64,000 bases of DNA from an uncultured Candidatus Saccharibacteria bacterium (GTDB taxonomy: Bacteria > Patescibacteriota > Minisyncoccia > UBA6257 > GWB1-50-10): the NCBI GenBank assembly GCA_964525595.1, contig CAZGHF010000001.1, positions 29,509 to 93,508 on the forward strand, written 5' to 3'. Every line of letters starts with the position of its first letter. Positions within the stretch are counted from its first letter, which is position 1. The translations under genes were made by a program, and so were the position numbers. Of this stretch, positions 1 through 63,412 are shown piece by piece. The notes beneath the pieces are model-generated. The model ran no database searches. It saw only the letters and a list, made by a program, of their open reading frames with translations, and was not told the DNA's origin.

Positions 1-418
1 CCTTCACCCCATGCACGGAAGGTATTACGCCTTCCGCGTTCCACGCTCTTTCCCGGCGCGTCGGTGATTTCTAGACCGTCGGAAAAAAGCATGTGGGTCT
101 CGTCGGTGGGCAAGGTCCAGTTGTCGCGAGCCCAGGGGTCGAGGATGATTACTCCGCTCATCTCGACGGGATGCAGTTGCACTACCCACTGTTCGCCCCG
201 GCCGACCCGAAGGGTATCGTTGGGGAACCTGTTCCAGGGGATGACAGCGTACTGCTCACTCCAGATTTCGCAGGAGCGGGCTGGCATCTCGGCGGTCTCC
301 GGTGTTGAGTCGTCCTGTCTCGTCATCCAGAAGACGATAGGTAGGATGGCGAGGACGATGAGAACCGCCCATAGCCAGCTAGGTGCTGGCTCCGCGGTCG
401 TTGTCTGTGTGTTCGCCA
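1..418 (-). CDS. hypothetical protein with N-terminal TM helix, truncated by window edge
   Basis: My own minus-strand translation from ATG (416-418): MANTQTTTAEPAPSWLWAVLIVLAILPIVFW... It stays open to position 1 and is not in the ORF track. The ATG lies 4 nt downstream of the stop of the 423..1607 gene. GC about 60-65%. Confidence 0.45.
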
Positions 419-422
419 TTGC

Positions 423-1607
423 CTACCTCCTTGCGAAAGCAGTGAGAACCCGTTCCACAACATCGCGAGATTCGGGGGCAATGCTCAACTTCTTCTCGTC
501 GATAACCTTCGGCACCTTCCCACGTTCGGTTTGAACGGCCTCGAGGGCTTGTTCGGGAGAGTAGTTGAACGGTTCCCCCATGAATTCCTTGATTCGCGCC
601 CGTACGTGGGCGAGCTCCACCTCTTCAGCGTCTCTTTCCAGCTTCTCTCTAGCTTGCGCATCGGCTGCCTCGGCTGCTCCTCCAAGCAAGTCAATATCGC
701 CGATGTTCAGGCGTTCGATAATCCAGCCGATGTCCTCGACTAGGATTTTGCCGTCGCCTGTACGAAGATCGCGGATTTCCCGCCTCCGTTTCTCGACTTT
801 CTCTTGGAGTTCCAGGAGAGCTTCAGGACCCTCTTCGCTCTTGATTATACTGAGCCTGTCCTTGACGCGTTTCCAGTCATCTTCGGCCCAGTCATTTTCT
901 CTTTCAAGGAATTGGGTTGGCCGCGGCCTCCGGAAGTATCGGAGCCAGATCCAGGTTGGGACATCTTGAGCGTAGGGAGGAACAATGGTTAGCGAGTTCC
1001 CCGCTATGTTCTTGATGAGCACGCTTGTGCCCTCAAGTTGGGACATGTTGAGTTCTCTCCAGGTGAAAGGACCTTCCTCCAACGACATGGACCACTCCCG
1101 GAGCCGTTCCAAGATTTTGGTCCTGAGCTGGATTGTGACGCCTCTTACTCCACCACTGTTGAGATACTGGATGAAGTGGTCAGGGCTCGGTCTACCGGCT
1201 ACGAGGACAGGCACCCTTGAATCCGCGTTGTCGGGGGTTTTTGTTAACTCCGACACGACATCAAAGGGTAGTCTTTCGACTTTTATTAGGATTAATCCGT
1301 ACCAGATGGGGCAGAGAGGAAAGAATCGCCACCCTTCTTCCTTGTACACGCTTACTTCCTTCTCTTCGTCTTCCCCCGTGTGCGGGTTCCGGACGGTGAC
1401 GGTTTTCGTGAACCGTTCCCCAAATATGGTTACCTGGGCCATGTGAGGCGGGTCAGCCGGTACTCGTCGCAATCCTTGGAGGATGAATCCTCCGAAGAGA
1501 ACGAAAAAGATTGAAAGGCCGAACCAGAAGTTCGTGAAGAGCCAAAACCCCGCTCCGATGAGAGCGAAGATGACACCAGCTCCCTGAATAATCCGCTTCA
1601 AATCCAT
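423..1607 (-). CDS. hypothetical membrane-anchored protein with charged coiled-coil C-terminal half (SPFH/band-7-like only weakly suggested)
   Basis: 394-aa ORF with N-terminal hydrophobic segment and E/R/K-rich helical C-terminus. Canonical SD (caGGAGGaacacc) before the ATG on the minus strand. GC-rich relative to the rest of the window. Confidence 0.5.
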   Translation of the reverse strand: MDLKRIIQGAGVIFALIGAGFWLFTNFWFGLSIFFVLFGGFILQGLRRVPADPPHMAQVTIFGERFTKTVTVRNPHTGEDEEKEVSVYKEEGWRFFPLCPIWYGLILIKVERLPFDVVSELTKTPDNADSRVPVLVAGRPSPDHFIQYLNSGGVRGVTIQLRTKILERLREWSMSLEEGPFTWRELNMSQLEGTSVLIKNIAGNSLTIVPPYAQDVPTWIWLRYFRRPRPTQFLERENDWAEDDWKRVKDRLSIIKSEEGPEALLELQEKVEKRRREIRDLRTGDGKILVEDIGWIIERLNIGDIDLLGGAAEAADAQAREKLERDAEEVELAHVRARIKEFMGEPFNYSPEQALEAVQTERGKVPKVIDEKKLSIAPESRDVVERVLTAFARR

Positions 1608-1740
1608 GGTGTTCCTCCTGCGCTCTCCGGCGCAATCGTGAGATATGTTGGTAGTTCTAGTATTCAGTTGTCAGATTTCTACTTTATAAGATATCACATA
1701 TTATAGTATTTGTCAAACTAAGCTTTAATTTATGAAAAGC

Positions 1741-1772
1741 AAACGCCACCAACTGAATTGGTGGCGTTGCGC
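1741..1772. terminator. hairpin (acgccaccaa-ctgaa-ttggtggcgt), probable intrinsic terminator of minus-strand gene 1793..2170
   Basis: 10-bp perfect stem. On the minus strand it is followed by a T-rich tract (ttgcttttcat). Confidence 0.5.
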
Positions 1773-1792
1773 TTGGGAGGTCAGTAGTACGG

Positions 1793-2170
1793 TCAGGAGA
1801 GATTCCATCGTTTCGCAAAGGCACCGGCCTGCCCGTAACGTTTCCACTTCATCAGCAGGTCGTATGTCTTGCTAGTTACTTCTTTACACGCTGTTGCGAG
1901 CGGATCTTCGTTGTGGCTCTTGGAGTATTCAAGATGCCGCTCGATCTCTCGGAAGGCTCCACCACCAATGTTGCCCCATCTGTATTGCCCTCCGTTTCGA
2001 TACAGCGTTCGGAAAGAAGCTTGTAGAGTGAGAAAGCGAGCCTTATCGGATTTTGTTAGACCGGGCGGCTGTTTGATTGTGATCCATGCCTTCTTTCTCC
2101 TCTCCATCAGAAAAGAGAAGGCAAGGAGGGAAATGGCAATTGCCGCAGGAATGATTGCATAGAGATTCAT
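1793..2170 (-). CDS. hypothetical small membrane protein
   Basis: ORF-track ORF 1793..2224. I prefer the internal ATG at 2170 (MNLYAIIPAAIAISLLAF...) because it is preceded by GGAGGTGgaat. One TM helix. Confidence 0.45.
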   Translation of the reverse strand: MNLYAIIPAAIAISLLAFSFLMERRKKAWITIKQPPGLTKSDKARFLTLQASFRTLYRNGGQYRWGNIGGGAFREIERHLEYSKSHNEDPLATACKEVTSKTYDLLMKWKRYGQAGAFAKRWNLS

Positions 2171-2363: not shown

Positions 2364-2657
2364 ATGTTGTTCACTCTTTATATACTTTATAGTTTAAAGA
2401 CGCCCCGGACTTACGTAGGTTATACCGCTGACTTGAAAGAGAGATTGAGATATCACAATAGCGGTAGAGTAAGAGCAACAAAACCCTATGTGCCGTGGAA
2501 AATTATTTATACGGAAGATAGTTTAACTAAAGAAGAAGCTAAGAAAAGAGAAATTTATTGGAAAAGTGGCGCTGGCAGACGCAATATCAATAGAATCTTA
2601 AGTGGGTTCCCGCCCCAATTGAAATCGGGGCGAGGCTCGCTCAAGACCGAGTCTTGA
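2364..2657 (+). CDS. GIY-YIG nuclease superfamily protein (short YhbQ/UPF0213-like)
   Basis: Translation ...TYVGYTADLKERLRYHNSGRV...KPYVPWKIIYTE...KEEAKKREIYWKSGAGRRNI matches the GIY-YIG motif pattern (GY-YxG, R, HN, E, K-N). Start taken at the ATG at 2364, just after the tRNA. The C-terminal tail runs into hairpin-rich sequence, so the true stop may be earlier. Confidence 0.65.
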   Translation: MLFTLYILYSLKTPRTYVGYTADLKERLRYHNSGRVRATKPYVPWKIIYTEDSLTKEEAKKREIYWKSGAGRRNINRILSGFPPQLKSGRGSLKTES

Positions 2658-2661
2658 GCGG

Positions 2662-2681
2662 CGAGTCCCACCCTCGGCACA
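2662..2681 (+). repeat. 20-bp direct repeat of the tRNA-Leu 3' end (cgagtcccaccctcggcaca)
   Basis: Identical to 2344..2363 (last T-loop nucleotides, T-stem 3' half, acceptor 3' half, discriminator). It is a partial tRNA 3' fragment and not a functional tRNA. Confidence 0.8.
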
Positions 2682-2727
2682 TTCAGTAAAATTGACAAAA
2701 GATTTAATGGGGAATAGTTTGTAAGGT

Positions 2728-3210
2728 ATGGAATTGCTTTTTAATAGTTCTTTTGGTTTAAAACTTGACGTGGCTCAGGTGGTGGCGGAGGTTTTGCGTT
2801 TCATGAAAAGCGACCCGAAGCGGCAATACAAAATCATTATCGGGACCGACTCCGAAGCGCTCCGGAGCAAGAACGCCGACTTTGTAACGGCGGTGGTGGT
2901 TCACCGAATCGGCAACGGCGGCCGTTATTTCTGGCGCCGACTCCAAGCCGGCAAGTTCCACACTATTCGCGACCGGATAATAAAAGAAGTGATGCTTTCG
3001 CTTGAAGCCGCTCACCTCTTTTTGGGAGAACTTAAAAAAGATTCTTCATCTAAAAACTGGAGTTTTGAGATTCACGCCGATATCGGCGAGAACGGGCAAA
3101 CAAAGGTGCTTATTCAGGAAGTGGTTGGAATGATTCGGGCCAATAATTTTGAGGTAAAAACGAAGCCGGAGAGTTACGCCGCGACCAAGGTAGCCGATAG
3201 GCATGTCTAA
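2728..3210 (+). CDS. DUF458 / YkuK-like RNase H-fold protein
   Basis: KIIIGTDSE...ADFVTAVVVHRIGNGGRYF...FEIHADIGENG resembles the YkuK/DUF458 family, recalled from memory. Confidence 0.5.
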   Translation: MELLFNSSFGLKLDVAQVVAEVLRFMKSDPKRQYKIIIGTDSEALRSKNADFVTAVVVHRIGNGGRYFWRRLQAGKFHTIRDRIIKEVMLSLEAAHLFLGELKKDSSSKNWSFEIHADIGENGQTKVLIQEVVGMIRANNFEVKTKPESYAATKVADRHV

Positions 3211-3781
3211 AAAAATCGTTTTTGACATTGAAACCAAAAACACCTTCGCCGACGTCGGCGGAGACCAGAATATTGATAAGCTTGAAGTTTCGGTGGTCGG
3301 GGTTTATTCGTACGACAAGGACGAATACATCTGTTTTGACGAGAACGAACTTGATGAGCTGGGTAGGTTTCTGAAGAGTGCCAGCCCCCTCATCGGTTTT
3401 AGCAGTAAGAGGTTTGATGTGCCGGTCTTGGAAAAATATTTTGATTTTAAATTATCCGCCGTTCCCCATTACGACATCCTGGAAGAGATTACGAAAGCTT
3501 TCGGTCGGCGAATTGGCTTGGGCGTGCTTGCCGAGGCCAATCTCGGCATCGGCAAAACCAGCCACGGCCTTGAGGCAATCGGGATGTACGCTCGCGGCGA
3601 GATGGAGAAGTTAAAAAATTACTGCCTTCAGGATGTAAAGATAACCAAAGAGATATTCGACCTTATTCGCAACCAGGGTTATCTTTGGATTCCCCAGCGG
3701 GACGTGCCGGACATGATTAAACTCCCTCTGACTTATAAAGAGGAAGATTCGCCGCAAGCTGGATTATTTGGTAATATTTAA
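3203..3781 (+). CDS. DEDDy-type 3'-5' exonuclease domain protein (DnaQ/PolB-exo-like)
   Basis: Exo I VFDIET, Exo II GFSSKRFDVPVL, Exo III YCLQDV. Overlaps the upstream gene by 8 nt. Confidence 0.6.
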   Translation: MSKKIVFDIETKNTFADVGGDQNIDKLEVSVVGVYSYDKDEYICFDENELDELGRFLKSASPLIGFSSKRFDVPVLEKYFDFKLSAVPHYDILEEITKAFGRRIGLGVLAEANLGIGKTSHGLEAIGMYARGEMEKLKNYCLQDVKITKEIFDLIRNQGYLWIPQRDVPDMIKLPLTYKEEDSPQAGLFGNI

Positions 3782-35386: not shown

Positions 35387-36433
35387 CTACTTCCTCTCAG
35401 TTAGGGTCATTTTCACGATAATTTCTTTTTTCCCTCTTAAAACCTTTAGTTTTATCTTGTCGCCGACTTCAGAGTTTTCAAGGTAATCCTGAACGTTTTT
35501 ATCAACTGTGATTTTTTCACCGTTCCACTCAAGAATAATGTCATTTTCTTTTAAGCCGGCAGTGTCTGCTGGACTTCCCTCGATAATGGCCTGGTCAAGA
35601 AGGTGTTCCTTGGCAATGAGAGCTCCGTAAGAAACAGAAAGCTTTAATTTTTCACTAAGGTTTTCATTTAACGTGAGATAACGGAGGCCTAAGAAAGGAC
35701 GCCGGATTTTTCCGTGACGTTTCAGGTCGAGAAGATCGCGTTCAGCCGCCTTTATGGGGATGGTAAAGCCGATGTTCTGAGCACCGAAGACCACGGCGGC
35801 GTTAATGCCGATTGCCTTACCGAAAATGTCAGTTAGCGGTCCGCCAGAGTTCCCTGGATTTATTGCTGCATCCGTTTGAATCAATCCCCGCATTTCCTGA
35901 ACCGGTGCCATCGGATCGGGCTGGGCGCTTATTGAACGGGAAAGTCCGGAGATGATACCAGTTGAAACTGTGTTTCTGAATATACCCAGCGCATTTCCGA
36001 AGGCGAGTACTGTCTGACCAAGCTCCAGATTATCCGAATTACCGAGCTCCAAGGTTGGTAAATTGTCTTTCTTCGTGTCAATTTTTAGAATGGCAATGTC
36101 GTCTAGAGGATCGCGGGCGAGGACCTGTACCGCGAATTTTTGACCATTACTTAAGATAGCCGAGTATTCCGCGTGAGGTTCGGTAATGACGTGTTTGTTT
36201 GTAAGGACCACCCCGTTTTTGTCGACAATAAAACCTGAACCGCCGCCTACTTGGACCATACCGTGAGCGTCAATTTTGTCAGGTGGAATCTGGAAGTCAG
36301 ATTTGCCGAGAGTTGATTCGAGCTCCGGCATTTCCTTTTTTAGTTCAGATATTTTTTTAGAAATTATAATCGAGACCACTGCCGGCATCACCTTCTTTAT
36401 AGTCCGGATTATTTGCGATTTTTCCTTCGCCAC
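35387..36433 (-). CDS. htrA: HtrA/DegP family serine endoprotease with PDZ domain
   Basis: Catalytic His (LTNKHV), Asp and Ser in GNSGGPL; C-terminal PDZ; N-terminal membrane anchor. Confidence 0.9.
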   Translation of the reverse strand: MAKEKSQIIRTIKKVMPAVVSIIISKKISELKKEMPELESTLGKSDFQIPPDKIDAHGMVQVGGGSGFIVDKNGVVLTNKHVITEPHAEYSAILSNGQKFAVQVLARDPLDDIAILKIDTKKDNLPTLELGNSDNLELGQTVLAFGNALGIFRNTVSTGIISGLSRSISAQPDPMAPVQEMRGLIQTDAAINPGNSGGPLTDIFGKAIGINAAVVFGAQNIGFTIPIKAAERDLLDLKRHGKIRRPFLGLRYLTLNENLSEKLKLSVSYGALIAKEHLLDQAIIEGSPADTAGLKENDIILEWNGEKITVDKNVQDYLENSEVGDKIKLKVLRGKKEIIVKMTLTERK

Positions 36434-36455
36434 CTTTTTATATTAACATAAGAGG

Positions 36456-37934
36456 ATGAGCTTTATAAAACGTTTATTTGAAATCATACCCGGTACTCTT
36501 ACGTGGCTTACTTTCATTGCTATTTTCTGGCTGTCTTTCAGGGCTCCAGTTTTCGTTTCGATCTTTTTTATTCTCTATTCTCTTTTTTGGCTTATCCGCA
36601 TAGTTTATCTTCATTTCCATTTGCGTGTTTCGTTCGTGAAGACTAGAGAAAACATGAAAGTCAACTGGCTGGAAAAAACGGAGAAGATTGAAGGTTGGCG
36701 GAATATTTATCATCTGGTAGTTTTACCGATGTATAAAGAGCCTCTTTCCGTTGTGAGAGAGACATTCAACACTTTTAGGAATTCTAATTACCCTAAGGAT
36801 AGAATTATTCTGGTTTTGGGAATTGAAGAGCGGGCTGGCAAGAAAGCAATGAAGACTGCTGAGAAAATAGAACAGGAATTCGGTAAAGATTTTTTCCGAT
36901 TTCTTATAACTCGTCATCCGGCGGACCTCCCTGGCGAGGTGCCAGGCAAGGGCTCAAATGAAACCTGGGCTGCCCGTCGTGCCAAAAAAGAAATAATCGA
37001 CCCGCTTGGCCTCAGATACGAAGACGTTGTTGTTTCGGTTCTCGATGTTGATACTCAAGTATCGGCGGATTACTTCAGCCGACTCGCTTATGTGTTTTTG
37101 ACCTGTGATAAGCCCCAGCGTTCCAGTTTTCAGCCTGTTCCGCTTTTCACTAATAACATCTATACGGCGCCGCCTTTCTCAAAAGTAATGTCTTTTTTTC
37201 CGACTTTTTGGCAGATGATGCAGCAGTCTCGGAAAGAACAGTTGTCCACTTTTTCTTCTCAGGCTATGCCTTTAAAAGCTCTGGTTGAGATTGATTTTTG
37301 GGACACGGAATACGTCTCTGAGGACTCGCTTATTTTCTGGAAGTTCTATCTTCATTATGACGGTGATTGGCGGACCGAACCGATTCACATTCCTGTTTCA
37401 ATGGATGTTACCCATGCCTCAACTTTTTGGGGAACAGCTAAAAATCTCTATCGCCAACAGAGACGTTGGGCCTGGGGGACGGAAAACATTCCCTATATGA
37501 TCTGCGGCTTTATTAAAAATAAAAAAATTCCCACAAATAAAAAAGTTTTTTGGACTTTCATATTTATGGAGGGGTTTTATTCTTGGGCAACCGCGCCTTT
37601 TATCCTTTTTGCTCTCGGTTGGCTGCCGCTTTTTTTGGGAAATTACGAATTTGGGCTGACGCTAATCTCTTATAATATGAGGACGATTGTTAGTTTAATT
37701 TTAAACCTTTCCGTTTTGGGGCTTGTTGCCTCAGCTGTACTGAGTGTCATCCTTTTACCGCCCAAGCCAGGTTGGTTCCGGAAAAGGCACTACATTTTCT
37801 ATTTTCTCTACTGGGCGATTGCACCGATTCTTATAATTCTTTTTAGTGCCGTCCCAGCGGTTGAAGCCCAAACTCGGCTGATGCTGGGTGGCAGGTTCCG
37901 TCTTGGATTCTGGCCGACGCCGAAGAGTAGATAA
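36456..37934 (+). CDS. membrane family-2 glycosyltransferase with QxxRW motif (processive, cellulose/chitin-synthase-like)
   Basis: GT-A region (LVVLPMYKEPL..., DxD-like VLDVDT), QRRWAWG motif, multiple TM helices at both ends. Confidence 0.7.
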   Translation: MSFIKRLFEIIPGTLTWLTFIAIFWLSFRAPVFVSIFFILYSLFWLIRIVYLHFHLRVSFVKTRENMKVNWLEKTEKIEGWRNIYHLVVLPMYKEPLSVVRETFNTFRNSNYPKDRIILVLGIEERAGKKAMKTAEKIEQEFGKDFFRFLITRHPADLPGEVPGKGSNETWAARRAKKEIIDPLGLRYEDVVVSVLDVDTQVSADYFSRLAYVFLTCDKPQRSSFQPVPLFTNNIYTAPPFSKVMSFFPTFWQMMQQSRKEQLSTFSSQAMPLKALVEIDFWDTEYVSEDSLIFWKFYLHYDGDWRTEPIHIPVSMDVTHASTFWGTAKNLYRQQRRWAWGTENIPYMICGFIKNKKIPTNKKVFWTFIFMEGFYSWATAPFILFALGWLPLFLGNYEFGLTLISYNMRTIVSLILNLSVLGLVASAVLSVILLPPKPGWFRKRHYIFYFLYWAIAPILIILFSAVPAVEAQTRLMLGGRFRLGFWPTPKSR

Positions 37935-37963
37935 GCTGCGGAGGAAGTGGTCCCGCAGTAGCG

Positions 37964-37993
37964 GGATTGCGATTTGTAACCAATCGCTTCGCT
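37964..37993 (-). repeat. copy A of a 30-34-bp repeat (plus strand ggattgcgatttgtaaccaatcgcttcgct; reverse complement matches copies at 39712-39810)
   Basis: Reverse complement gcgaagcgattggttacaaatcgcaatcc differs at one position from 39781-39809. Confidence 0.65.
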
Positions 37994-38045
37994 TTTGGAC
38001 AAATCGGGAAGATTCGAACAAGTTCTCACCCACTGACAGGATACA

Positions 38046-38075
38046 CAAAAAGGATACCACGAGGGTATCCTTTTT
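38046..38075. terminator. bidirectional intrinsic terminator aaaaa-ggatacc-acgag-ggtatcc-ttttt
   Basis: 7-bp stem flanked by an A-run and a T-run. Downstream of the minus-strand tRNA-Arg/tRNA-Ser pair. Confidence 0.7.
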
Positions 38076-38084
38076 GTGTATTTG

Positions 38085-38171
38085 CGGAGGGTAGAGGATT
38101 CGAACCTCTGAGGGGATTTCTCCCCAACCGCATTTCGAGTGCGGCGCATTAGACCACTCTGCCAACCCTCC
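38085..38171 (-). tRNA. tRNA-Ser(CGA)
   Basis: Minus strand GGAGGGT-TG-GCAGAGTGGTCTAATGC-G-CCGCA-CTCGAAA-TGCGG-long variable arm-AGAGG-TTCGAAT-CCTCT-ACCCTCC-G. Confidence 0.8.
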
Positions 38172-38172
38172 G

Positions 38173-38244
38173 TCTCCCCGGCAGGAATCGAACCCACATT
38201 TAGGGTTTAGGAAACCCTCGTTCTATCCGTTGAACTACGGGGAG
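38173..38244 (-). tRNA. tRNA-Arg(CCT)
   Basis: Minus strand CTCCCCG-TA-GTTCAACGGATAGAAC-G-AGGGT-TTCCTAA-ACCCT-AAAT-GTGGG-TTCGATT-CCTGC-CGGGGAG-A. Resembles E. coli argW apart from two G-U pairs in the T-stem and a C1-G72 pair. Confidence 0.7.
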
Positions 38245-38343
38245 GTTGATTTTAACACTTTATATAAATTTGCCGTTCGAGTAAATCCCCCCCTGTGTAA
38301 TACTTGTCTAGAGAGCGAAGATTTGTTATTTTTTTGATATACT

Positions 38344-38415
38344 GCGCCCTTAGCTCAGTGGTAGAGTGCTTGCATGACACGCAAGAGGTCGGAAGTTCGA
38401 TCCTTCCAGGGCGCA
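38344..38415 (+). tRNA. tRNA-Val(GAC)
   Basis: Acceptor GCGCCCT/AGGGCGC, anticodon stem CTTGC/GCAAG with loop ATGACAC, CCA encoded. Confidence 0.8.
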
Positions 38416-38420
38416 CCAAG

Positions 38421-38493
38421 GGGCCGTTAGCTCAGTTGGTAGAGCGCTTCGATGGCATCGAAGAGGTCGTCGGTTCGAATCCGATACGGTCCA
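38421..38493 (+). tRNA. tRNA-Ala(GGC)
   Basis: Acceptor GGGCCGT/ACGGTCC with the G3:U70 alanine identity pair, anticodon stem CTTCG/CGAAG with loop ATGGCAT. Confidence 0.8.
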
Positions 38494-38512
38494 CAAATTC
38501 CAAAATCAAAAA

Positions 38513-39205
38513 ATGTCATTACCGAATCATATAGTAATTGTTCCCGATGGTAATCGCCGGTGGGCAAGAAAGCGGGGGAAGTCGGTCCGGTTTGGTCACA
38601 CCGAAGGCGCAAAAAACACTGAGAAAATTTTGAAAGCGGCGCTAGATATGGGTATTCCAAGCTTCACTTTTTGGGGGTGTTCGGTTTCAAATATCACGGA
38701 GCGTTCGCGGGTGGAGATAAAATTCATCCTCTTTATCTTTGAGCAGTACTTTAAGAAACTTCTGAAAAGAAAAGAGCTTGATGAGTACGGTATTCGCGTT
38801 CGCGTTCTCGGTCGCTGGACGGAAATTTTCCCCAAAAAAACACAGAAACCGATTCAGGAAGTTATTGAAAAAACAAAGAGAAATAAAAACAGGAACATGA
38901 CTTTTCTTCTCGCCTATGACGGCCGGGACGAAATGACAGAAGCAATAAAGAGCATTAGAAGGAAAAAGGGCAAGAAGATAGACAGGGATTTGGTTAAAGA
39001 AAATCTCTGGACGAGGGACCTTCCCCCGGTTGATTTGGTTATTCGCACCGGCGGTGAACCGCACTGGTCGGCCGGGCTCATGATGTGGGACGTGGCCGAA
39101 GCGCGGCTCCATTTTACGGAAACTCTCTGGCCGGCCTTTACTCCCGGGGAATTTGAGAAAATTGTAAAAGTGACCGGTAAAGTTGAGCGCCGTTACGGCA
39201 GATAA
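38513..39205 (+). CDS. uppS: undecaprenyl diphosphate synthase (isoprenyl transferase)
   Basis: HIVIVPDGNRRWARKRG N-terminal motif, 230 aa. Confidence 0.9.
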   Translation: MSLPNHIVIVPDGNRRWARKRGKSVRFGHTEGAKNTEKILKAALDMGIPSFTFWGCSVSNITERSRVEIKFILFIFEQYFKKLLKRKELDEYGIRVRVLGRWTEIFPKKTQKPIQEVIEKTKRNKNRNMTFLLAYDGRDEMTEAIKSIRRKKGKKIDRDLVKENLWTRDLPPVDLVIRTGGEPHWSAGLMMWDVAEARLHFTETLWPAFTPGEFEKIVKVTGKVERRYGR

Positions 39206-39243
39206 TTGAAGTGTTATCTTTTTTGTGTTAATTTCTGTTTGAC

Positions 39244-39316
39244 GGGCCCATAGCTCATCTGGTAGAGCGCCACATTTGCAATGTGGAGGTAACCGGTTCG
39301 AGTCCGGTTGGGTCCA
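39244..39316 (+). tRNA. tRNA-Ala(TGC)
   Basis: Acceptor GGGCCCA/TGGGTCC with G3:U70, anticodon stem CCACA/TGTGG with loop TTTGCAA, CCA encoded. Confidence 0.8.
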
Positions 39317-39382
39317 CCAACAGCGAAGAAAGTTCTTACGTGCTATAAGTAGAACTTGTAATGGTTTGTTATAATTTAATTA

Positions 39383-39643
39383 GTGAAAATAAGAAATAAA
39401 ACACTTCGTTTTATAGAATTTTTTCTGGTTGGGGTGGTTATGGGAATAATAGAGGACGTTCTCGCGGTTTGGCTTTCAACGGGGGAACAGATAACTTTCA
39501 GGGTGATTTGGATAGTTTTTCTTGTCGCCTTGCCGTTTGCGATAATAAGCGAGTACATTGTTGACCATCCGAAATTTTGGAAAACAATCTTTCGCATTAA
39601 GGACAATGGGAGCAGGGTTGAAAAGAAAAAGAATCCGCGTTAG
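39383..39643 (+). CDS. hypothetical small membrane protein
   Basis: 86-aa ORF with two hydrophobic helices. Confidence 0.35.
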   Translation: MKIRNKTLRFIEFFLVGVVMGIIEDVLAVWLSTGEQITFRVIWIVFLVALPFAIISEYIVDHPKFWKTIFRIKDNGSRVEKKKNPR

Positions 39644-39658
39644 CTTATAATATGCTTT

Positions 39659-39689
39659 AGGAGGCGTGGCAGAGTGGTTTAACGCGCTA
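39659..39689 (+). pseudogene. tRNA-Ser-like 5' fragment (acceptor 5' half plus D-arm only)
   Basis: GGAGGCGTGGCAGAGTGGTTTAACGCGC aligns with the 5' 28 nt of tRNA-Ser(CGA) (GGAGGGTTGGCAGAGTGGTCTAATGCGC). No matching 3' half (CGCCTCC) is found downstream. Confidence 0.5.
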
Positions 39690-39711
39690 GTATTGCTCCC
39701 TGTTTGTCCAA

Positions 39712-39810
39712 GAGCAAAGCGATTGGTAACAAACAACAGTCCGCCGGAATATAATGGAGGCGGAAAACTGACTAACTGAGCGAAGCGATTGGTTATAAAT
39801 CGCAATCCGC
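39712..39810 (+). repeat. two direct copies of the 34-bp repeat (GAGCAAAGCGATTGGTAACAAACAACAGTCCGCC / GAGCGAAGCGATTGGTTATAAATCGCAATCCGCC) separated by 31 bp
   Basis: Copies are about 70% identical to each other. The second copy is 97% identical to the reverse complement of 37964..37993. Each copy is followed by GGAGGCGG-like or tRNA sequence. Confidence 0.65.
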
Positions 39811-39818
39811 CATAGCGC

Positions 39819-39907
39819 GGTGGGGTGGCTGAGTCTGGTTGAAGGCGCCGCACTTGAAATGCGGTATATCTGAAAAGGTATCGTGGGTTCGAATCCCACC
39901 CCCACCG
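39819..39907 (+). tRNA. tRNA-Ser(TGA)
   Basis: Acceptor GGTGGGG/CCCCACC, anticodon stem CCGCA/TGCGG with loop CTTGAAA, variable-arm hairpin ATATC-TGAAAA-GGTAT, T-arm GTGGG-TTCGAAT-CCCAC. Confidence 0.75.
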
Positions 39908-39927
39908 CGCTGCGGCGGAAAAATTGT

Positions 39928-41127
39928 ATGCATTTATTCTGGCACTACCATTCGCATCGTATTGACAGGGACTTTAGTCCCGATTTTTGGTTATATGAAC
40001 TTGCCGTTTGGCTCCATGTTTTGGGGAGGTCGCTGATTGCGGTCTTTATACCGATTTTATTGCTGCAAATCGGTTATGAGCTGGGTGAGGTTATCTTTTT
40101 CTATCTAATTTACAACTTGATTGATGTTCCTCTTAGCTTTTTGGTTCGTCACCTGGTATGCAAAATAGGCGCCCGCTGGGTCGTTATTTTGGGGAAAATC
40201 TGGAGTATTGGTTTTTTTGTTCTCCTGGCGCTTATTACGTCAAATAGCTGGCCGCTTCTTATGTTGCTCGCTCTCTTCGGAGCCTTCTACGACACTTTCT
40301 ATTGGATTGGACACCGATTTCTCTTTATGAAAAGTACCGGCGAGGCGAGTGATGTGGGAACAAAGACGGGCGTTTTGTACGCCGTTCAGCGGTTTGCGGG
40401 TCTTATCGGTCCGGCTGCTGGCGCCGGGATTCTAGTATTTTTCAATCAGCAGGCGCTTATATACGTGAGCATCGCTATTTTGGTAATGTCTGTGTTTCCT
40501 CTGCTTAAAGTAAATGATTTTCCGGATAAGCCGGCAAAGAAACCCCTTCCGCTCAAAGTGTTTTTTGCCAAGTGGCGTGAGCGAAAGAATTTCCTTTCAG
40601 CCGGTTTTTTCTCGATTCATGGTTCGGCGGAAGGGGTTTTGTGGCCGCTTTTCATTTTTGTAGTTTTTAAAACCATTGAATCCGTGGCAATCGTGCCTGT
40701 TATTATTTCCATTACCGCCATTGCTTTCTCTTATTTTGCCGGTTATTTTCAGAGAACCGCTCGAGACAGAGCCATTGTATTTGGGGCGGCGCTTATCGCG
40801 CTGGTTTGGATTGCCCGAATGGTTGTGGATGCGGAATTGTTTCTTTTCGTGAGCGTGTTTCTAGTGAGTACATTTTCGATACTCGTTACCATACCTTTGA
40901 GCAGTGATATTTTCTCGCGCGGAAAGAAAATTGACCCGCTAAACACATCCACTTTTATGAATGTCGCTAACATGCTTGCTAAAGCCATCCTCTATGGAAT
41001 CCTTGCTCTTTTTGTTAATGTATTCGGCGTTGGTTTTGTTGTTGCCGTCGTGAGTTTAACGGCTATAATTGCCGTCCACTATATTTATCTTTTAATGAAG
41101 GGGCACCAAATGGAGCCGGCGAAATAG
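39928..41127 (+). CDS. polytopic membrane protein, probable MFS-type transporter
   Basis: About 400 aa with 10-12 predicted TM helices. Start taken at the ATG at 39928 because the ORF-track start at 39883 overlaps tRNA-Ser. Confidence 0.45.
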   Translation: MHLFWHYHSHRIDRDFSPDFWLYELAVWLHVLGRSLIAVFIPILLLQIGYELGEVIFFYLIYNLIDVPLSFLVRHLVCKIGARWVVILGKIWSIGFFVLLALITSNSWPLLMLLALFGAFYDTFYWIGHRFLFMKSTGEASDVGTKTGVLYAVQRFAGLIGPAAGAGILVFFNQQALIYVSIAILVMSVFPLLKVNDFPDKPAKKPLPLKVFFAKWRERKNFLSAGFFSIHGSAEGVLWPLFIFVVFKTIESVAIVPVIISITAIAFSYFAGYFQRTARDRAIVFGAALIALVWIARMVVDAELFLFVSVFLVSTFSILVTIPLSSDIFSRGKKIDPLNTSTFMNVANMLAKAILYGILALFVNVFGVGFVVAVVSLTAIIAVHYIYLLMKGHQMEPAK

Positions 41128-61969: not shown

Positions 61970-63412
61970 ATGACTTTAGGTAATCTCACGATTAAAAAGT
62001 TTCACGAAGGCCTAATTAGTAAGAAGTTCTCGGCGGTCGAGGTGGCCGAAAAGTTTTTCAGTCAGATTGATAAAGAGAACGGAGAAATCGGTGCCTACCT
62101 TAATTTGTCAAAAGACGAAGCTATCGCGCAGGCTAACGCTGTTGATACTGCTCTTGCCGGCGGAAAGGAGATTCCGATTCTTGCCGGAGTACCATTTGCA
62201 ATAAAAGACAATATTTTGATTGAGGGCGGATCGGCAACAGTTGCTTCAAAGATTCTCGAAAATTATAAAAGCGCCTATGATGCAACCGTTATCCGGAAGC
62301 TTAAGGAGAACCAGGCAGTACTTTTAGGCAAAACTAACCTCGATGAATTTGCGATGGGTTCTTCGACTGAAAACTCCGCTTTCAGGAAAACCAGGAACCC
62401 GCATGACCCGACCCGCGTTCCGGGCGGTTCTTCGGGCGGTTCGGCTGCGGCGGTTGCGGCAAACATGGCTTTGGCCGCTCTTGGAACAGATACTAACGGT
62501 TCAATTAGACAGCCAGCAAGTTTTTGCGGTGTAGTCGGGTTAAAACCCACCTATGGTGTGGTATCCCGGCATGGAATTATTGCTCTCGGCTCAAGCTTGG
62601 ACCAGGTCGGTCCCCTTACCAAAACCGTGGAGGACGCATCGATTATTTTTGAGGCAATAAACGGCCGGGATGAATTTGATTCTACAAGTTTGGATAAGGC
62701 ATTTAGACACGAAAATATTTCTTTGGACGAGATTAGAAATTTAAAAGTCGGTATTCCCAAGGAATATTTTATTGACGGCATCGATAAAGAAGTTGAGAAA
62801 GGTATTGAGGAAACGATAGAAAAACTGAAAAGCCTGAAAATTGAGTTTAAAAAAGTATCCCTGCCCCACACTAAATATGCAATTTCTGTTTACTACGTAA
62901 TTCTTCCGGCTGAAGCAAGTACGAACCTCGCTCGTTACGACGGCGTTCGCTACGCAAGAGTTTCTTCCGTTCCGGACGATTCGAGCTTAAGAGAGATTTA
63001 TCTTAAAGATAAAGGTGCCGGGTTTGGTTCCGAGTCGAAGCGGCGGATACTTTTAGGAACTTTTGTCCTCTCTGCGGGCTATTACGATGCTTATTATACC
63101 AAAGCTCAAAAAGTTCGCAGTTTGATTAAACAGGATTTTGATGAAGTCTTTAAGAAAGTTGACGTGATTATCACCCCTACTACTCCGACTCCGGCTTTCA
63201 AACTGGGTGAAAAAACAGATGATCCTCTTGCGATGTACCTTGCCGATATCTTTACCAGTCCTTCAAGTTTATCAGGGTTTCCGGCGGTATCGATTCCGGT
63301 CAAGAAATACGAGGTTGGGAGCGGGGAATTGCCGGTGGGTTTTCAGCTTATTGGCCGTCACTTCCGCGAAGCCGACATTTTAAATCTCGGTCAGTATTAC
63401 GAAGAAATTTAA
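61970..63412 (+). CDS. gatA: Glu-tRNA(Gln) amidotransferase subunit A
   Basis: Amidase signature GGSSGGSAAAVAA and catalytic Ser-cisSer-Lys context. 480 aa. Confidence 0.9.
   Translation: MTLGNLTIKKFHEGLISKKFSAVEVAEKFFSQIDKENGEIGAYLNLSKDEAIAQANAVDTALAGGKEIPILAGVPFAIKDNILIEGGSATVASKILENYKSAYDATVIRKLKENQAVLLGKTNLDEFAMGSSTENSAFRKTRNPHDPTRVPGGSSGGSAAAVAANMALAALGTDTNGSIRQPASFCGVVGLKPTYGVVSRHGIIALGSSLDQVGPLTKTVEDASIIFEAINGRDEFDSTSLDKAFRHENISLDEIRNLKVGIPKEYFIDGIDKEVEKGIEETIEKLKSLKIEFKKVSLPHTKYAISVYYVILPAEASTNLARYDGVRYARVSSVPDDSSLREIYLKDKGAGFGSESKRRILLGTFVLSAGYYDAYYTKAQKVRSLIKQDFDEVFKKVDVIITPTTPTPAFKLGEKTDDPLAMYLADIFTSPSSLSGFPAVSIPVKKYEVGSGELPVGFQLIGRHFREADILNLGQYYEEI

Follow-up and report, generated by a model that had tools for sequence, protein, structure and literature searches.

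What cuts a serine tRNA gene within its anticodon loop and leaves half of it in front of a short repeat? This question is raised by a 64,000-nt stretch of DNA (hereafter the window) from an uncultured Candidatus Saccharibacteria bacterium (contig CAZGHF010000001.1, positions 29,509 to 93,508), where such a half and three copies of a hairpin-forming repeat, named E here, accompany a cluster of tRNA genes and uppS. The original prediction attributed this arrangement either to past recombination or insertion at serine tRNA genes or to a regulatory box of tRNA operons. E occurs in multiple copies and in unrelated contexts, appears as a clean insertion relative to homologous genes, lies preferentially in the sense orientation and is linked to tRNA genes. 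With moderate confidence, we regard E as a non-autonomous mobile interspersed hairpin repeat spread throughout the Candidate Phyla Radiation (CPR, Patescibacteria), resembling repetitive extragenic palindromic sequences (REP) and Rickettsia palindromic elements (RPE), and the tRNA fragment as its insertion scar. The chemistry by which E would move is proposed with less confidence than this overall picture. Literature searches by sequence string and by topic returned no description of E or of such a repeat in these bacteria, and the family is apparently undescribed.

Copies of E in the window

The repeats first predicted are present in the sequence, as a motif scan with shuffled controls and a repeat finder agree, and they are longer than was initially stated. 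A 29-nt motif, GCGAAGCGATTGGTTAYAAATCGCAATCC, is located at 37964-37992 (minus strand) and 39780-39808 (plus strand), with 0 matches in 100 shuffles. The repeat finder detects a third and more diverged copy at 39712-39745 (79% identity to the copy at 39778-39811) and a stretch of 46 nt common to copies A and B (37964-38009 and 39697-39742). Identity between the inverted copies amounts to 80-97%. Each copy starts with a long hairpin (hp1) and continues at its 3' side into a second, small and G+C-rich hairpin (hp2), and a 13-nt spacer separates copy B from copy C. The small open reading frames (ORFs) over the repeats had been taken for mere translations of the repeat, and so they are. The copies are composed as follows, with bit scores referring to a covariance model (R1) of E and L-numbers to loci in other sources.

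37951-38010, minus strand: copy A, complete
37964-38010, minus strand: copy A hp1, TTCCC-GATTTGT-CCAA-AAGCGAAGCGA-TTGG-TT-ACAAATC-GCAATCC, R1 match of 73.8 bits
37951-37966, minus strand: copy A hp2, TCCCGC-tact-GCGGGA, with a near-identical solo hairpin, TCCCGC-tatt-GCGGGA, in a T-loop remnant of L134
39696-39764, plus strand: copy B, complete
39696-39742, plus strand: copy B hp1, slightly degenerate, with C-A as its last stem pair, R1 match of 75.3 bits
39740-39764, plus strand: copy B hp2, closed, TCCGCC-ggaatataatgga-GGCGGA, with a 13-nt loop containing TATAAT
39778-39818, plus strand: copy C, 5'-truncated
39778-39808, plus strand: 3' two-thirds of copy C hp1, lacking the 5' strand, 97% identical to copy A, weak R1 match of 16.4 bits
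39806-39818, plus strand: 5' strand of copy C hp2, doubling as the leader strand of a 13-bp helix that lengthens the acceptor stem of tRNA-Ser(TGA)
39907-39919, plus strand: 3' strand of copy C hp2, the trailer strand GCGCTGCGGCGGA

The 3' strand of copy B hp1 and the loop of its hp2 together make up a promoter-like site at 39726-39755 (GTAACA, 18 nt, TATAAT; 10 of 12 matches), which is directed at tRNA-Ser(TGA). A further, weak model match at 62351-62402 (minus strand; 10 bits, E-value about 3) is probably due to chance.

Structure and covariation of E

E is about 54-70 nt in length and consists of hp1 and a variable hp2, the latter being usually present and not followed by T runs. hp1 is a bulged hairpin of ~47 nt that features a tandem G-A internal loop, a tip of the GCGAAGC type and a 2-nt T-N bulge, which starts with T in every copy. 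For the subfamily in the window, the consensus reads g-CTCC-CTGTTTGT-CCAA-GA-GC-GAA-GC-GA-TTGG-TW-ACAAACAG-CA-GTCC, followed by hp2. Only the apex TTGTCCAAGAGCGAAGCGATTGGTWACAA (~28 nt) is nearly invariant, and the lower stem covaries strongly. The 5' ends are (G)CTCC, TTCC or TAAG; other subfamilies differ in the lower stem and flanks, and some possess an outer closing helix. The tip sequence, GCGAAGC, is known as an unusually stable DNA mini-hairpin, and it may serve as a lead towards a single-stranded DNA form.

The covariance model was built from 15 copies. It recovers 131 copies in 92 sources but, within the window, only A, B and weakly C, and the copies found by the model alone keep the apex or alter it in a compensatory manner (CCGA/TCGG in L015). 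In an alignment that was fitted to the model itself, 98.5% of the cells are paired and compensatory double changes occur in 12 of the 14 pairs; none of 500 shuffles and no slid register performs as well as the true pairing. An independent count over the lower stem gives all four Watson-Crick pair types at variable positions, and 17 G-U against 3 A-C combinations. The hairpin is selected as a structure.

A second subfamily represents an inverted doublet of ~150 nt, in which a G+C hairpin separates hp1 from a diverged hp1 of the opposite strand (L058 8037-8225; L066 4800-4945; L039, L051, L078, L043 and others). On the right, these doublets end in ..ATTATCGC immediately before the ATG of different genes (rpsM in L058), no Shine-Dalgarno sequence intervening, and some members carry TGCTGATAAT, an extended -10-like motif. 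Additionally, tandem repeats of a 42-nt module, CTCCGCTCTCTGGGTTTGCGGGTTGCCGTCATACGACGACTG, immediately precede E at L017 3560-3650, in an Azambacteria metagenome-assembled genome (MAG, JACQDT01). The module starts with the CTCC of E itself, which suggests a mosaic of small hairpin modules analogous to bacterial interspersed mosaic elements (BIME). Solo hairpins of the hp2 type without hp1 are located at L134 3640-3675 and 3895-3925 (TCCCGCC-aga-GGCGGG and TCCCGC-tatt-GCGGGA), occupying the D-loop and the T-loop of dead tRNA-Ser halves. They may have arisen either by loss of hp1 between flanking TCC(C) repeats or by independent insertion of hp2-like hairpins.

Distribution of E

Two pattern scans, one of genomes with a degenerate 25-mer (one genome per species) and one of metagenomes with a different part of the motif, yielded 131 further E loci, 17 from genomes and 114 from metagenomes. 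All 17 genome loci are in CPR MAGs belonging to several classes (Azambacteria, Liptonbacteria, Nomurabacteria, Niyogibacteria, Paceibacterota and Saccharibacteria), five of them in a single Azambacteria MAG. The scans found no E in viral contigs, phage records or plasmids. Such an abundant, phylum-shared repeat family is unexpected in the tiny, streamlined genomes of these bacteria.

The window comes from a genome of the Parcubacteria type, and its uppS product resembles proteins of Liptonbacteria and Azambacteria. An independently assembled European Nucleotide Archive scaffold of the same genome (BAEC19-1_SAMN10404973 scaffold_85, L133), identical in sequence, corresponds to window positions 35711-39409 and ends ~250 nt before the repeats, and a Logan contig stops at position 39289. 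The repeats may thus break assemblies. A group I intron in a 23S rRNA gene (L085 1219-1471) and a LAGLIDADG homing-endonuclease ORF near rRNA (L027 199-999) were also encountered; both are ordinary for CPR genomes and unrelated to E.

Insertion of E into genes

Clustering of the ORFs within 4 kb of 133 copies revealed no recurrent family beyond housekeeping ones. The commonest were ABC transporter, EF-G, RF2, FtsW, S13 and IleRS, and one LAGLIDADG family was tied to rRNA introns. As a sign of recent copying, four near-identical units of ~115 nt occupy different loci of one MAG (L004, L009, L014, L017), which also contains a different copy of E inside its SMC gene. In a screen that could detect only stop-free, in-frame copies, E was found on the coding strand of the following genes.

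L001: SMC
L008 and L067: RluA-type pseudouridine synthase
L098 and L108: PheT
L124: Mfd
L023: RNase HII

E is open in five of its six reading frames. The PheT homologues (11 of 11) lack exactly the 18 amino acids (54 nt) that E fills in L098, and 54 nt is the length of that subfamily. In that it keeps the reading frame and is absent from these homologues, E is functionally analogous to RPE. The PheT junctions carry a 9-nt direct repeat, GGGTTCCCG. An apparent repeat in SMC, CGGCGTATG, does not adjoin the junction and so was not counted as a target duplication. No flanking direct repeat of at least 6 nt was found in 48 of 65 copies.

The rRNA genes are affected as well. E lies antisense to rRNA in 23S-5S spacers, and a clean antisense insertion of 69-70 nt occupies one and the same site of the 5S gene (CCGTTCTC/ATTCCGAAC, the slash marking the junction) in three loci.

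L029 2363-2680: interrupted 5S copy
L042 280-580: interrupted 5S copy
L116 1540-1800: interrupted 5S copy

The interrupted copy is truncated or degenerate and adjoins an intact 5S gene, and the insertion point is ambiguous by 0-1 nt. In several CPR genomes, E is hence the source of pseudo-5S genes within 23S-5S regions. Where E separates co-directional genes, 31 cases are sense and 8 antisense, at a median of 59 nt after the upstream gene. The occurrence inside protein genes, antisense in 23S-5S spacers and beside many unrelated genes argues against the tRNA-operon regulatory box considered at the outset.

Association of E with tRNA genes

E prefers the loops of structured-RNA genes. A tRNA gene stands within 150 nt of 21 out of 116 distinct copies, whereas only 3.2% of the positions in the same loci are that close to one (p about 1e-10), and for nine of these 21 copies the neighbour is a tRNA-Ser on the same strand. 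The tRNA-Ser gene is cut after the YTTG of the anticodon loop (35/36), with E immediately next to it, in the window (..CTAGTATTG/CTCCC), in L007 (..CTGGTCTTG/TTCCC) and twice in L134. This recurrent junction bears out the part of the original prediction that invoked recombination or insertion at serine tRNA genes. tRNA-Gln is cut after ..GGTAGG (23/24) in L013, L119, L106 and L075. In L119, positions 1-23 of the intact downstream tRNA-Gln are copied exactly in the fragment that precedes E, and a second fragment, after that tRNA-Gln, repeats its positions 55-72 without change. A T-loop-like junction, GTTCGAATC/TTCCC, is shared by copy A and L082/L028. In every locus, the DNA from fragment to intact tRNA measures about 80-250 nt.

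The tRNA features of the window are listed below.

39660-39695, plus strand: 5' fragment of an older tRNA-Ser (36 nt), with acceptor GGAGGCG, D arm, CTAGT (5' strand of the anticodon stem) and ATTG, cut at 35/36 of the anticodon
39819-39908, plus strand: intact tRNA-Ser(TGA), enclosed by hp2 of copy C
38084-38171, minus strand: intact tRNA-Ser(CGA), upstream partner of the copy-A block
38041-38081: perfect 18-bp hairpin with a 5-nt loop, between tRNA-Ser(CGA) and the copy-A block
38011-38040, minus strand: degenerate tRNA-like piece, ..CAGTGGG..GTTCGAATC, which adjoins copy A on its 5' side
37937-37950, minus strand: 3' acceptor-like remnant of tRNA-Ser, CCACTTCCTCCGCA read from 37950 to 37937 (CCACTTCCTCC-G-CA), directly 3' of copy A

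The original observation of a tRNA-Ser 5' piece lacking its 3' half holds, and the piece extends to 39695. The first 28 nt (39660-39687) are 86% identical to the 5' half of tRNA-Ser(CGA). The fragment forms no complete cloverleaf and is not called as a tRNA by ARAGORN or Rfam, and the window contains no matching 3' half (CGCCTCC adjoining a T-loop). A transfer-messenger RNA, a permuted tRNA or a split tRNA with its 3' half in the window can accordingly be set aside, ARAGORN reporting none. A TATAAT at 39647-39652 ends 7 nt ahead of the first base of the fragment. The leader/trailer helix of tRNA-Ser(TGA), detected by the repeat finder and by folding, comprises 13 bp (39806-39818 with 39907-39919), and the closed hp2 of copy B has exactly the stem, TCCGCC/GGCGGA, that forms the outer part of this helix.

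Copy A belongs to a different but likewise recurrent layout, in which an intact tRNA-Ser comes first, then a long hairpin and a decayed tRNA-like stretch with GTTCGAATC at its end, and finally E with a 3' acceptor remnant behind it. The same layout is present in L011/L040, L082/L028 and L107. The piece at 38011-38040 shows about 50% ungapped identity, by eye, to the 5' fragment before copy B, and from its sequence it may be read as a tRNA remnant cut in the T-loop. The 3' remnant shares its ending, ..CCTCCGCA, with tRNA-Ser(CGA), pairs with GGAGGCG at only 5 of 7 positions, and has analogues after E in L082, L107, L011, L103 and L134. The hairpin at 38041-38081 resembles a bidirectional terminator, yet it has no T run; in L011/L040 and L082/L028, tRNA-Ser is followed at the corresponding place by a hairpin just as long.

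The most elaborate association is a nested one. The relative L134 has a fuller version of the orthologous site, in the following order.

1: 5' half 1
2: E1 and the 5' strand of its hp2
3: 5' half 2 (GGAAGGT..CCGCACTTG)
4: E2 and the 5' strand of its hp2
5: intact tRNA-Ser(TGA)
6: 3' strand of E2 hp2
7: 3' half 2 (..ACCTTCC-G)
8: 3' strand of E1 hp2
9: 3' half 1 (CGCCTCC-G-CA)

L103 and L007 are nested in the same manner. In L134 and L103, the acceptor strands of the nested halves pair layer by layer and differ between layers: ACCTTCC of 3' half 2 pairs with the GGAAGGT of L134, and CGCCTCC of 3' half 1 pairs with the GGAGGCG of the window fragment. Since the acceptor stems of the three layers differ, the inner tRNA genes are not local duplicates. 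The outer tRNA halves carry extra hairpin insertions and deletions, for which reason they appear to be dead. Of nine tRNAs with E upstream, five have an acceptor stem lengthened by a leader/trailer helix of 9-15 bp, as is also the case in L134, compared with 0 of 72 other tRNAs. As such helices are confined to E-linked tRNAs, a tRNA inside hp2 constitutes a specific and recurrent composite.

Proposed origin of the locus

In the reading favoured here, E would spread as DNA, and an enzyme encoded elsewhere would act in trans, recognizing E as a folded single strand in the style of REP and their REP-associated tyrosine transposases (RAYT) or of IS200-type elements. Insertion into the loops of structured-RNA genes (the anticodon, D and T loops of tRNA, and 5S rRNA) would kill the copy that is hit. 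Insertions in essential single-copy RNA genes would consequently persist only where an intact copy stands alongside or inside hp2. For the window, this suggests that an older tRNA-Ser with the acceptor GGAGGCG and the TATAAT at 39647-39652 was cut at 35/36 by an incoming unit, namely E carrying the present tRNA-Ser(TGA) in its hp2. The 5' half of the old gene would remain, followed by copy B and the truncated copy C, and the 3' half would have been lost in the window while surviving in L134. Copy A would be an independent case, occupying the T-loop of a tRNA-Ser copy that has decayed and lies on the downstream side of the intact tRNA-Ser(CGA).

Several points weigh against this reading. No transposase or recombinase was found, and a tblastn search of the loci (936 kb) with two IS200/IS608 TnpA queries, a weak test, gave 0 matches. 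A host RNA function would also fit the apex being nearly invariant in distant CPR lineages, which is partly a matter of ascertainment as both pattern scans required the apex, and likewise the sense bias and the position after genes or before starts. The comparison for PheT relies on homologues of ~50% identity rather than on empty and filled sites of closely related genomes. Moreover, no single known transposition chemistry accounts for the long duplications of 18-59 nt seen in tRNA and 5S genes, and the reading offers no account of how an intact tRNA comes to be inside hp2.

A bolder extension is offered only tentatively and is itself rather unlikely, namely that E with a tRNA in hp2 acts as a self-propagating cassette for tRNA replacement. 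It would home into the anticodon loop of tRNA-Ser (35/36), destroy the resident gene and supply its own copy, and repeated insertions would build the "Russian doll" loci of L134, L007 and L103. The different acceptor stems of the three L134 layers argue for imported rather than locally duplicated tRNAs.

Alternative explanations

The main alternative, possible if doubtful, is that E serves mainly the host as an RNA signal, for example a 3'-end stabilizer or terminator, a processing site of the RNase III type or a module for pre-tRNA processing. The hp2 helix would then present the tRNA for excision, a conserved CPR protein would bind the apex of hp1, and dispersal would be secondary. The sense bias of 31 to 8 and the median distance of 59 nt from the upstream gene fit such a role, as do the excess of G-U over A-C in the stems, the conservation of the apex across classes, the leader/trailer helices that covary between loci and are specific to E-linked tRNAs, and the subfamily-2 doublets, whose end falls precisely at the ATG of different genes, rpsM among them. 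A host signal is, however, hard to reconcile with E lying in frame inside five different protein genes, antisense to rRNA in 23S-5S spacers, and within 5S and tRNA copies that then look dead; the lack of T runs after hp2 counts against it too. A function for the host would nonetheless be compatible with mobility, as REP and Correia elements are both mobile and functional.

A much less probable alternative is that homologous recombination between the inverted copies A and B flipped the tRNA/uppS block. Their identity of 80-97% would permit it, and B-type 5' halves and A-type 3' halves stand on one strand in L103 and L134 whereas they are on opposite strands in the window. Synteny could be compared with one usable relative, L134, as L135 is not syntenic. 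L134 shares uppS, tRNA-Ala(TGC) and the small ORF with the window at about 77-83% identity, and neither the order nor the orientation of uppS, tRNA-Ala(TGC), the small ORF and tRNA-Ser(TGA) differs between the two. An inversion between A and B is unsupported because the orientation of the uppS block relative to tRNA-Ser(TGA) is equal in both. Furthermore, the copy-A layout beside an intact tRNA-Ser recurs in unrelated lineages (L011, L082, L107), and the acceptor remnant after copy A matches GGAGGCG poorly, as stated above. The idea that the inverted copies bracket an inverted or mobile block of 1.8 kb is thus unsupported as well. A larger inversion with breakpoints other than A and B may have taken place, since L103 and L134 hold both types of remnant on one strand.

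L134 has about 1.8 kb extra between tRNA-Ala(GGC) and uppS relative to the window (99-1871), as well as a NUDIX gene between tRNA-Ala(TGC) and the small ORF (2627-3244). Owing to these insertions, the tRNA/uppS neighbourhood appears fluid even without E. The 86-aa ORF at 39383-39643 has no Pfam match. It is probably a real gene, with no function assigned, because a counterpart with 83% nucleotide identity is conserved in the same position in L134 (3232-3457).

Also very improbable, and slightly more so, is the view that the repeats are attachment-site remnants of larger elements, comparable to phages or integrative and conjugative elements (ICE), which entered tRNA-Ser by means of a tyrosine integrase and displaced the chromosomal half as the 5' fragment. 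tRNA genes are classic integration sites, and the order of 5' fragment, foreign DNA and intact tRNA is expected if the element bears a 5' part. On the other hand, only about 80-250 nt separate fragment and intact tRNA, the neighbours are housekeeping genes, and no integrase emerged near the copies from the clustering of neighbouring ORFs. Nothing in the viral, phage and plasmid collections matches E, which is present in ORFs, 5S genes and spacers as well. Integrase-mediated integration at tRNA sites was rejected for the same size of the inserts and the same housekeeping surroundings.

That E is a new, very small intron or intervening sequence removed from RNA, so that the interrupted genes stay functional, is scarcely credible: E does insert in hairpin loops including 35/36 of the anticodon and is tolerated in essential genes, but no copy matches the group I core (RF00028) while the genuine group I intron of L085 was recovered, the 5' exon has G (..YTTG) rather than U at its end, E measures only 54-70 nt, every interrupted tRNA or 5S copy stands beside an intact one and is itself truncated or further damaged, and none of the copies in ORFs, in a screen that detects such cases only, contains a stop or leaves the frame, which is what translation of E would lead one to expect.

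The remaining candidates were rejected on particular features. A small RNA had been considered at the outset; nothing in Rfam overlaps E at the gathering score in the window and 20 loci, or at an E-value of at most 10 in 37700-40000, and known RNA families (riboswitch, ribozyme, small RNA, intron) are discarded on this ground. Self-cleaving ribozymes (hammerhead, twister, HDV-like, pistol, hatchet) likewise have no Rfam matches, and by eye only the apex, not the junctions, is conserved between subfamilies. Inspection by eye also argued against domain V of group II introns (a similar 2-nt bulge, but no AGC triad in the right place), integron attC sites (no R/L boxes, and conservation of the apex instead of the base) and the template/variable repeats of diversity-generating retroelements (mismatches not specific to adenine). 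A target preference of the IS91-like kind (CTTG/GTTC) was suggested by the junctions after CTTG, but those after ..AATG, ..TAGG and ..GCTG do not fit. Pairing of hp1 as an internal guide with the target (CAAGA with UCUUG) fits tRNA-Ser only. A MITE (miniature inverted-repeat transposable element) is ruled out by the lack of terminal inverted repeats and of a fixed target duplication (48 of 65 copies, as above).

Significance

E matters for annotation as a source of spurious ORFs, pseudo-tRNAs and pseudo-5S genes, and it probably breaks assemblies as well. An insert of 18-23 residues is tolerated by proteins that are essential (SMC, PheT, Mfd, RluA). The invariant apex implies a likely conserved binding partner, either an enzyme that moves E or an RNA-binding factor. 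Loci with a tRNA in a hairpin in a tRNA suggest a route for the horizontal replacement of tRNA genes, which bears on the complete tRNA set of minimal genomes. In addition, E-linked tRNAs within leader/trailer helices of 9-15 bp raise the question of how such pre-tRNAs are processed. The cassette, if true, would represent a new kind of selfish element that spreads as the only source of an essential tRNA.

Comparison with known systems

RPE share several traits with E. Both are short non-autonomous palindromes with no known transposase that form translated in-frame insertions, also occur in or near RNA genes and are open in most frames (five of six for E). The likeness would be functional rather than one of homology, given that E is unrelated in sequence, belongs to another host group and is smaller (54-70 versus ~100-150 nt). 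What also sets E apart is the superphylum-wide conservation of its 28-nt apex, the link with tRNA and 5S genes that are duplicated or nested, and the tRNAs inside hp2.

REP, their hairpin-forming doublets (REPIN) and BIME, which depend on the Y1 HUH enzyme RAYT, also resemble E as imperfect palindromes of a few tens of nucleotides with covarying stems, mostly extragenic and just after genes. Both occur as singlets, inverted doublets (subfamily 2 of E) and mosaics (L017), and neither shows target duplication. Palindrome, covariation and multiple copies are thus all found in E. In contrast to REP, several E copies lie inside genes and not extragenically, neither GTAG nor CGTC is conserved as a tag at the ends, and no RAYT was seen in the loci by the tblastn search, a weak test. 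Besides, E is phylum-wide, whereas REP families are specific to a species or genus. Correia elements (NEMIS), enterobacterial repetitive intergenic consensus sequences (ERIC) and other bacterial MITEs are similarly small, dispersed and non-autonomous, and can provide promoter-like sequences (10 of 12 matches in copy B) and transcript hairpins. E lacks both the terminal inverted repeats and the short target duplication of fixed length that MITEs possess.

The group I introns that interrupt Patescibacteria tRNA genes at position 35/36 (Nakagawa et al. 2026, PMC13011429) have their host phylum in common with E, and also the unusual site within the anticodon loop. E differs in having no group I core (Rfam), in being 3-5 times shorter, in following G instead of U, and in that it does not restore the interrupted tRNA but comes with an intact copy. 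Integrative elements that target tRNA genes, and the split or nested tRNA genes of archaea, similarly place partial tRNA copies around foreign DNA, and the leader/trailer helices linked to E recall the complementary flanks of split tRNAs in Nanoarchaeum. The differences are inserts of only ~100-250 nt, no integrase, no evident bulge-helix-bulge and bacterial hosts. Among interspersed palindromic repeats, E is unusual in its phylum-wide conservation, in the tRNAs within hp2 and in the nested split-tRNA loci.

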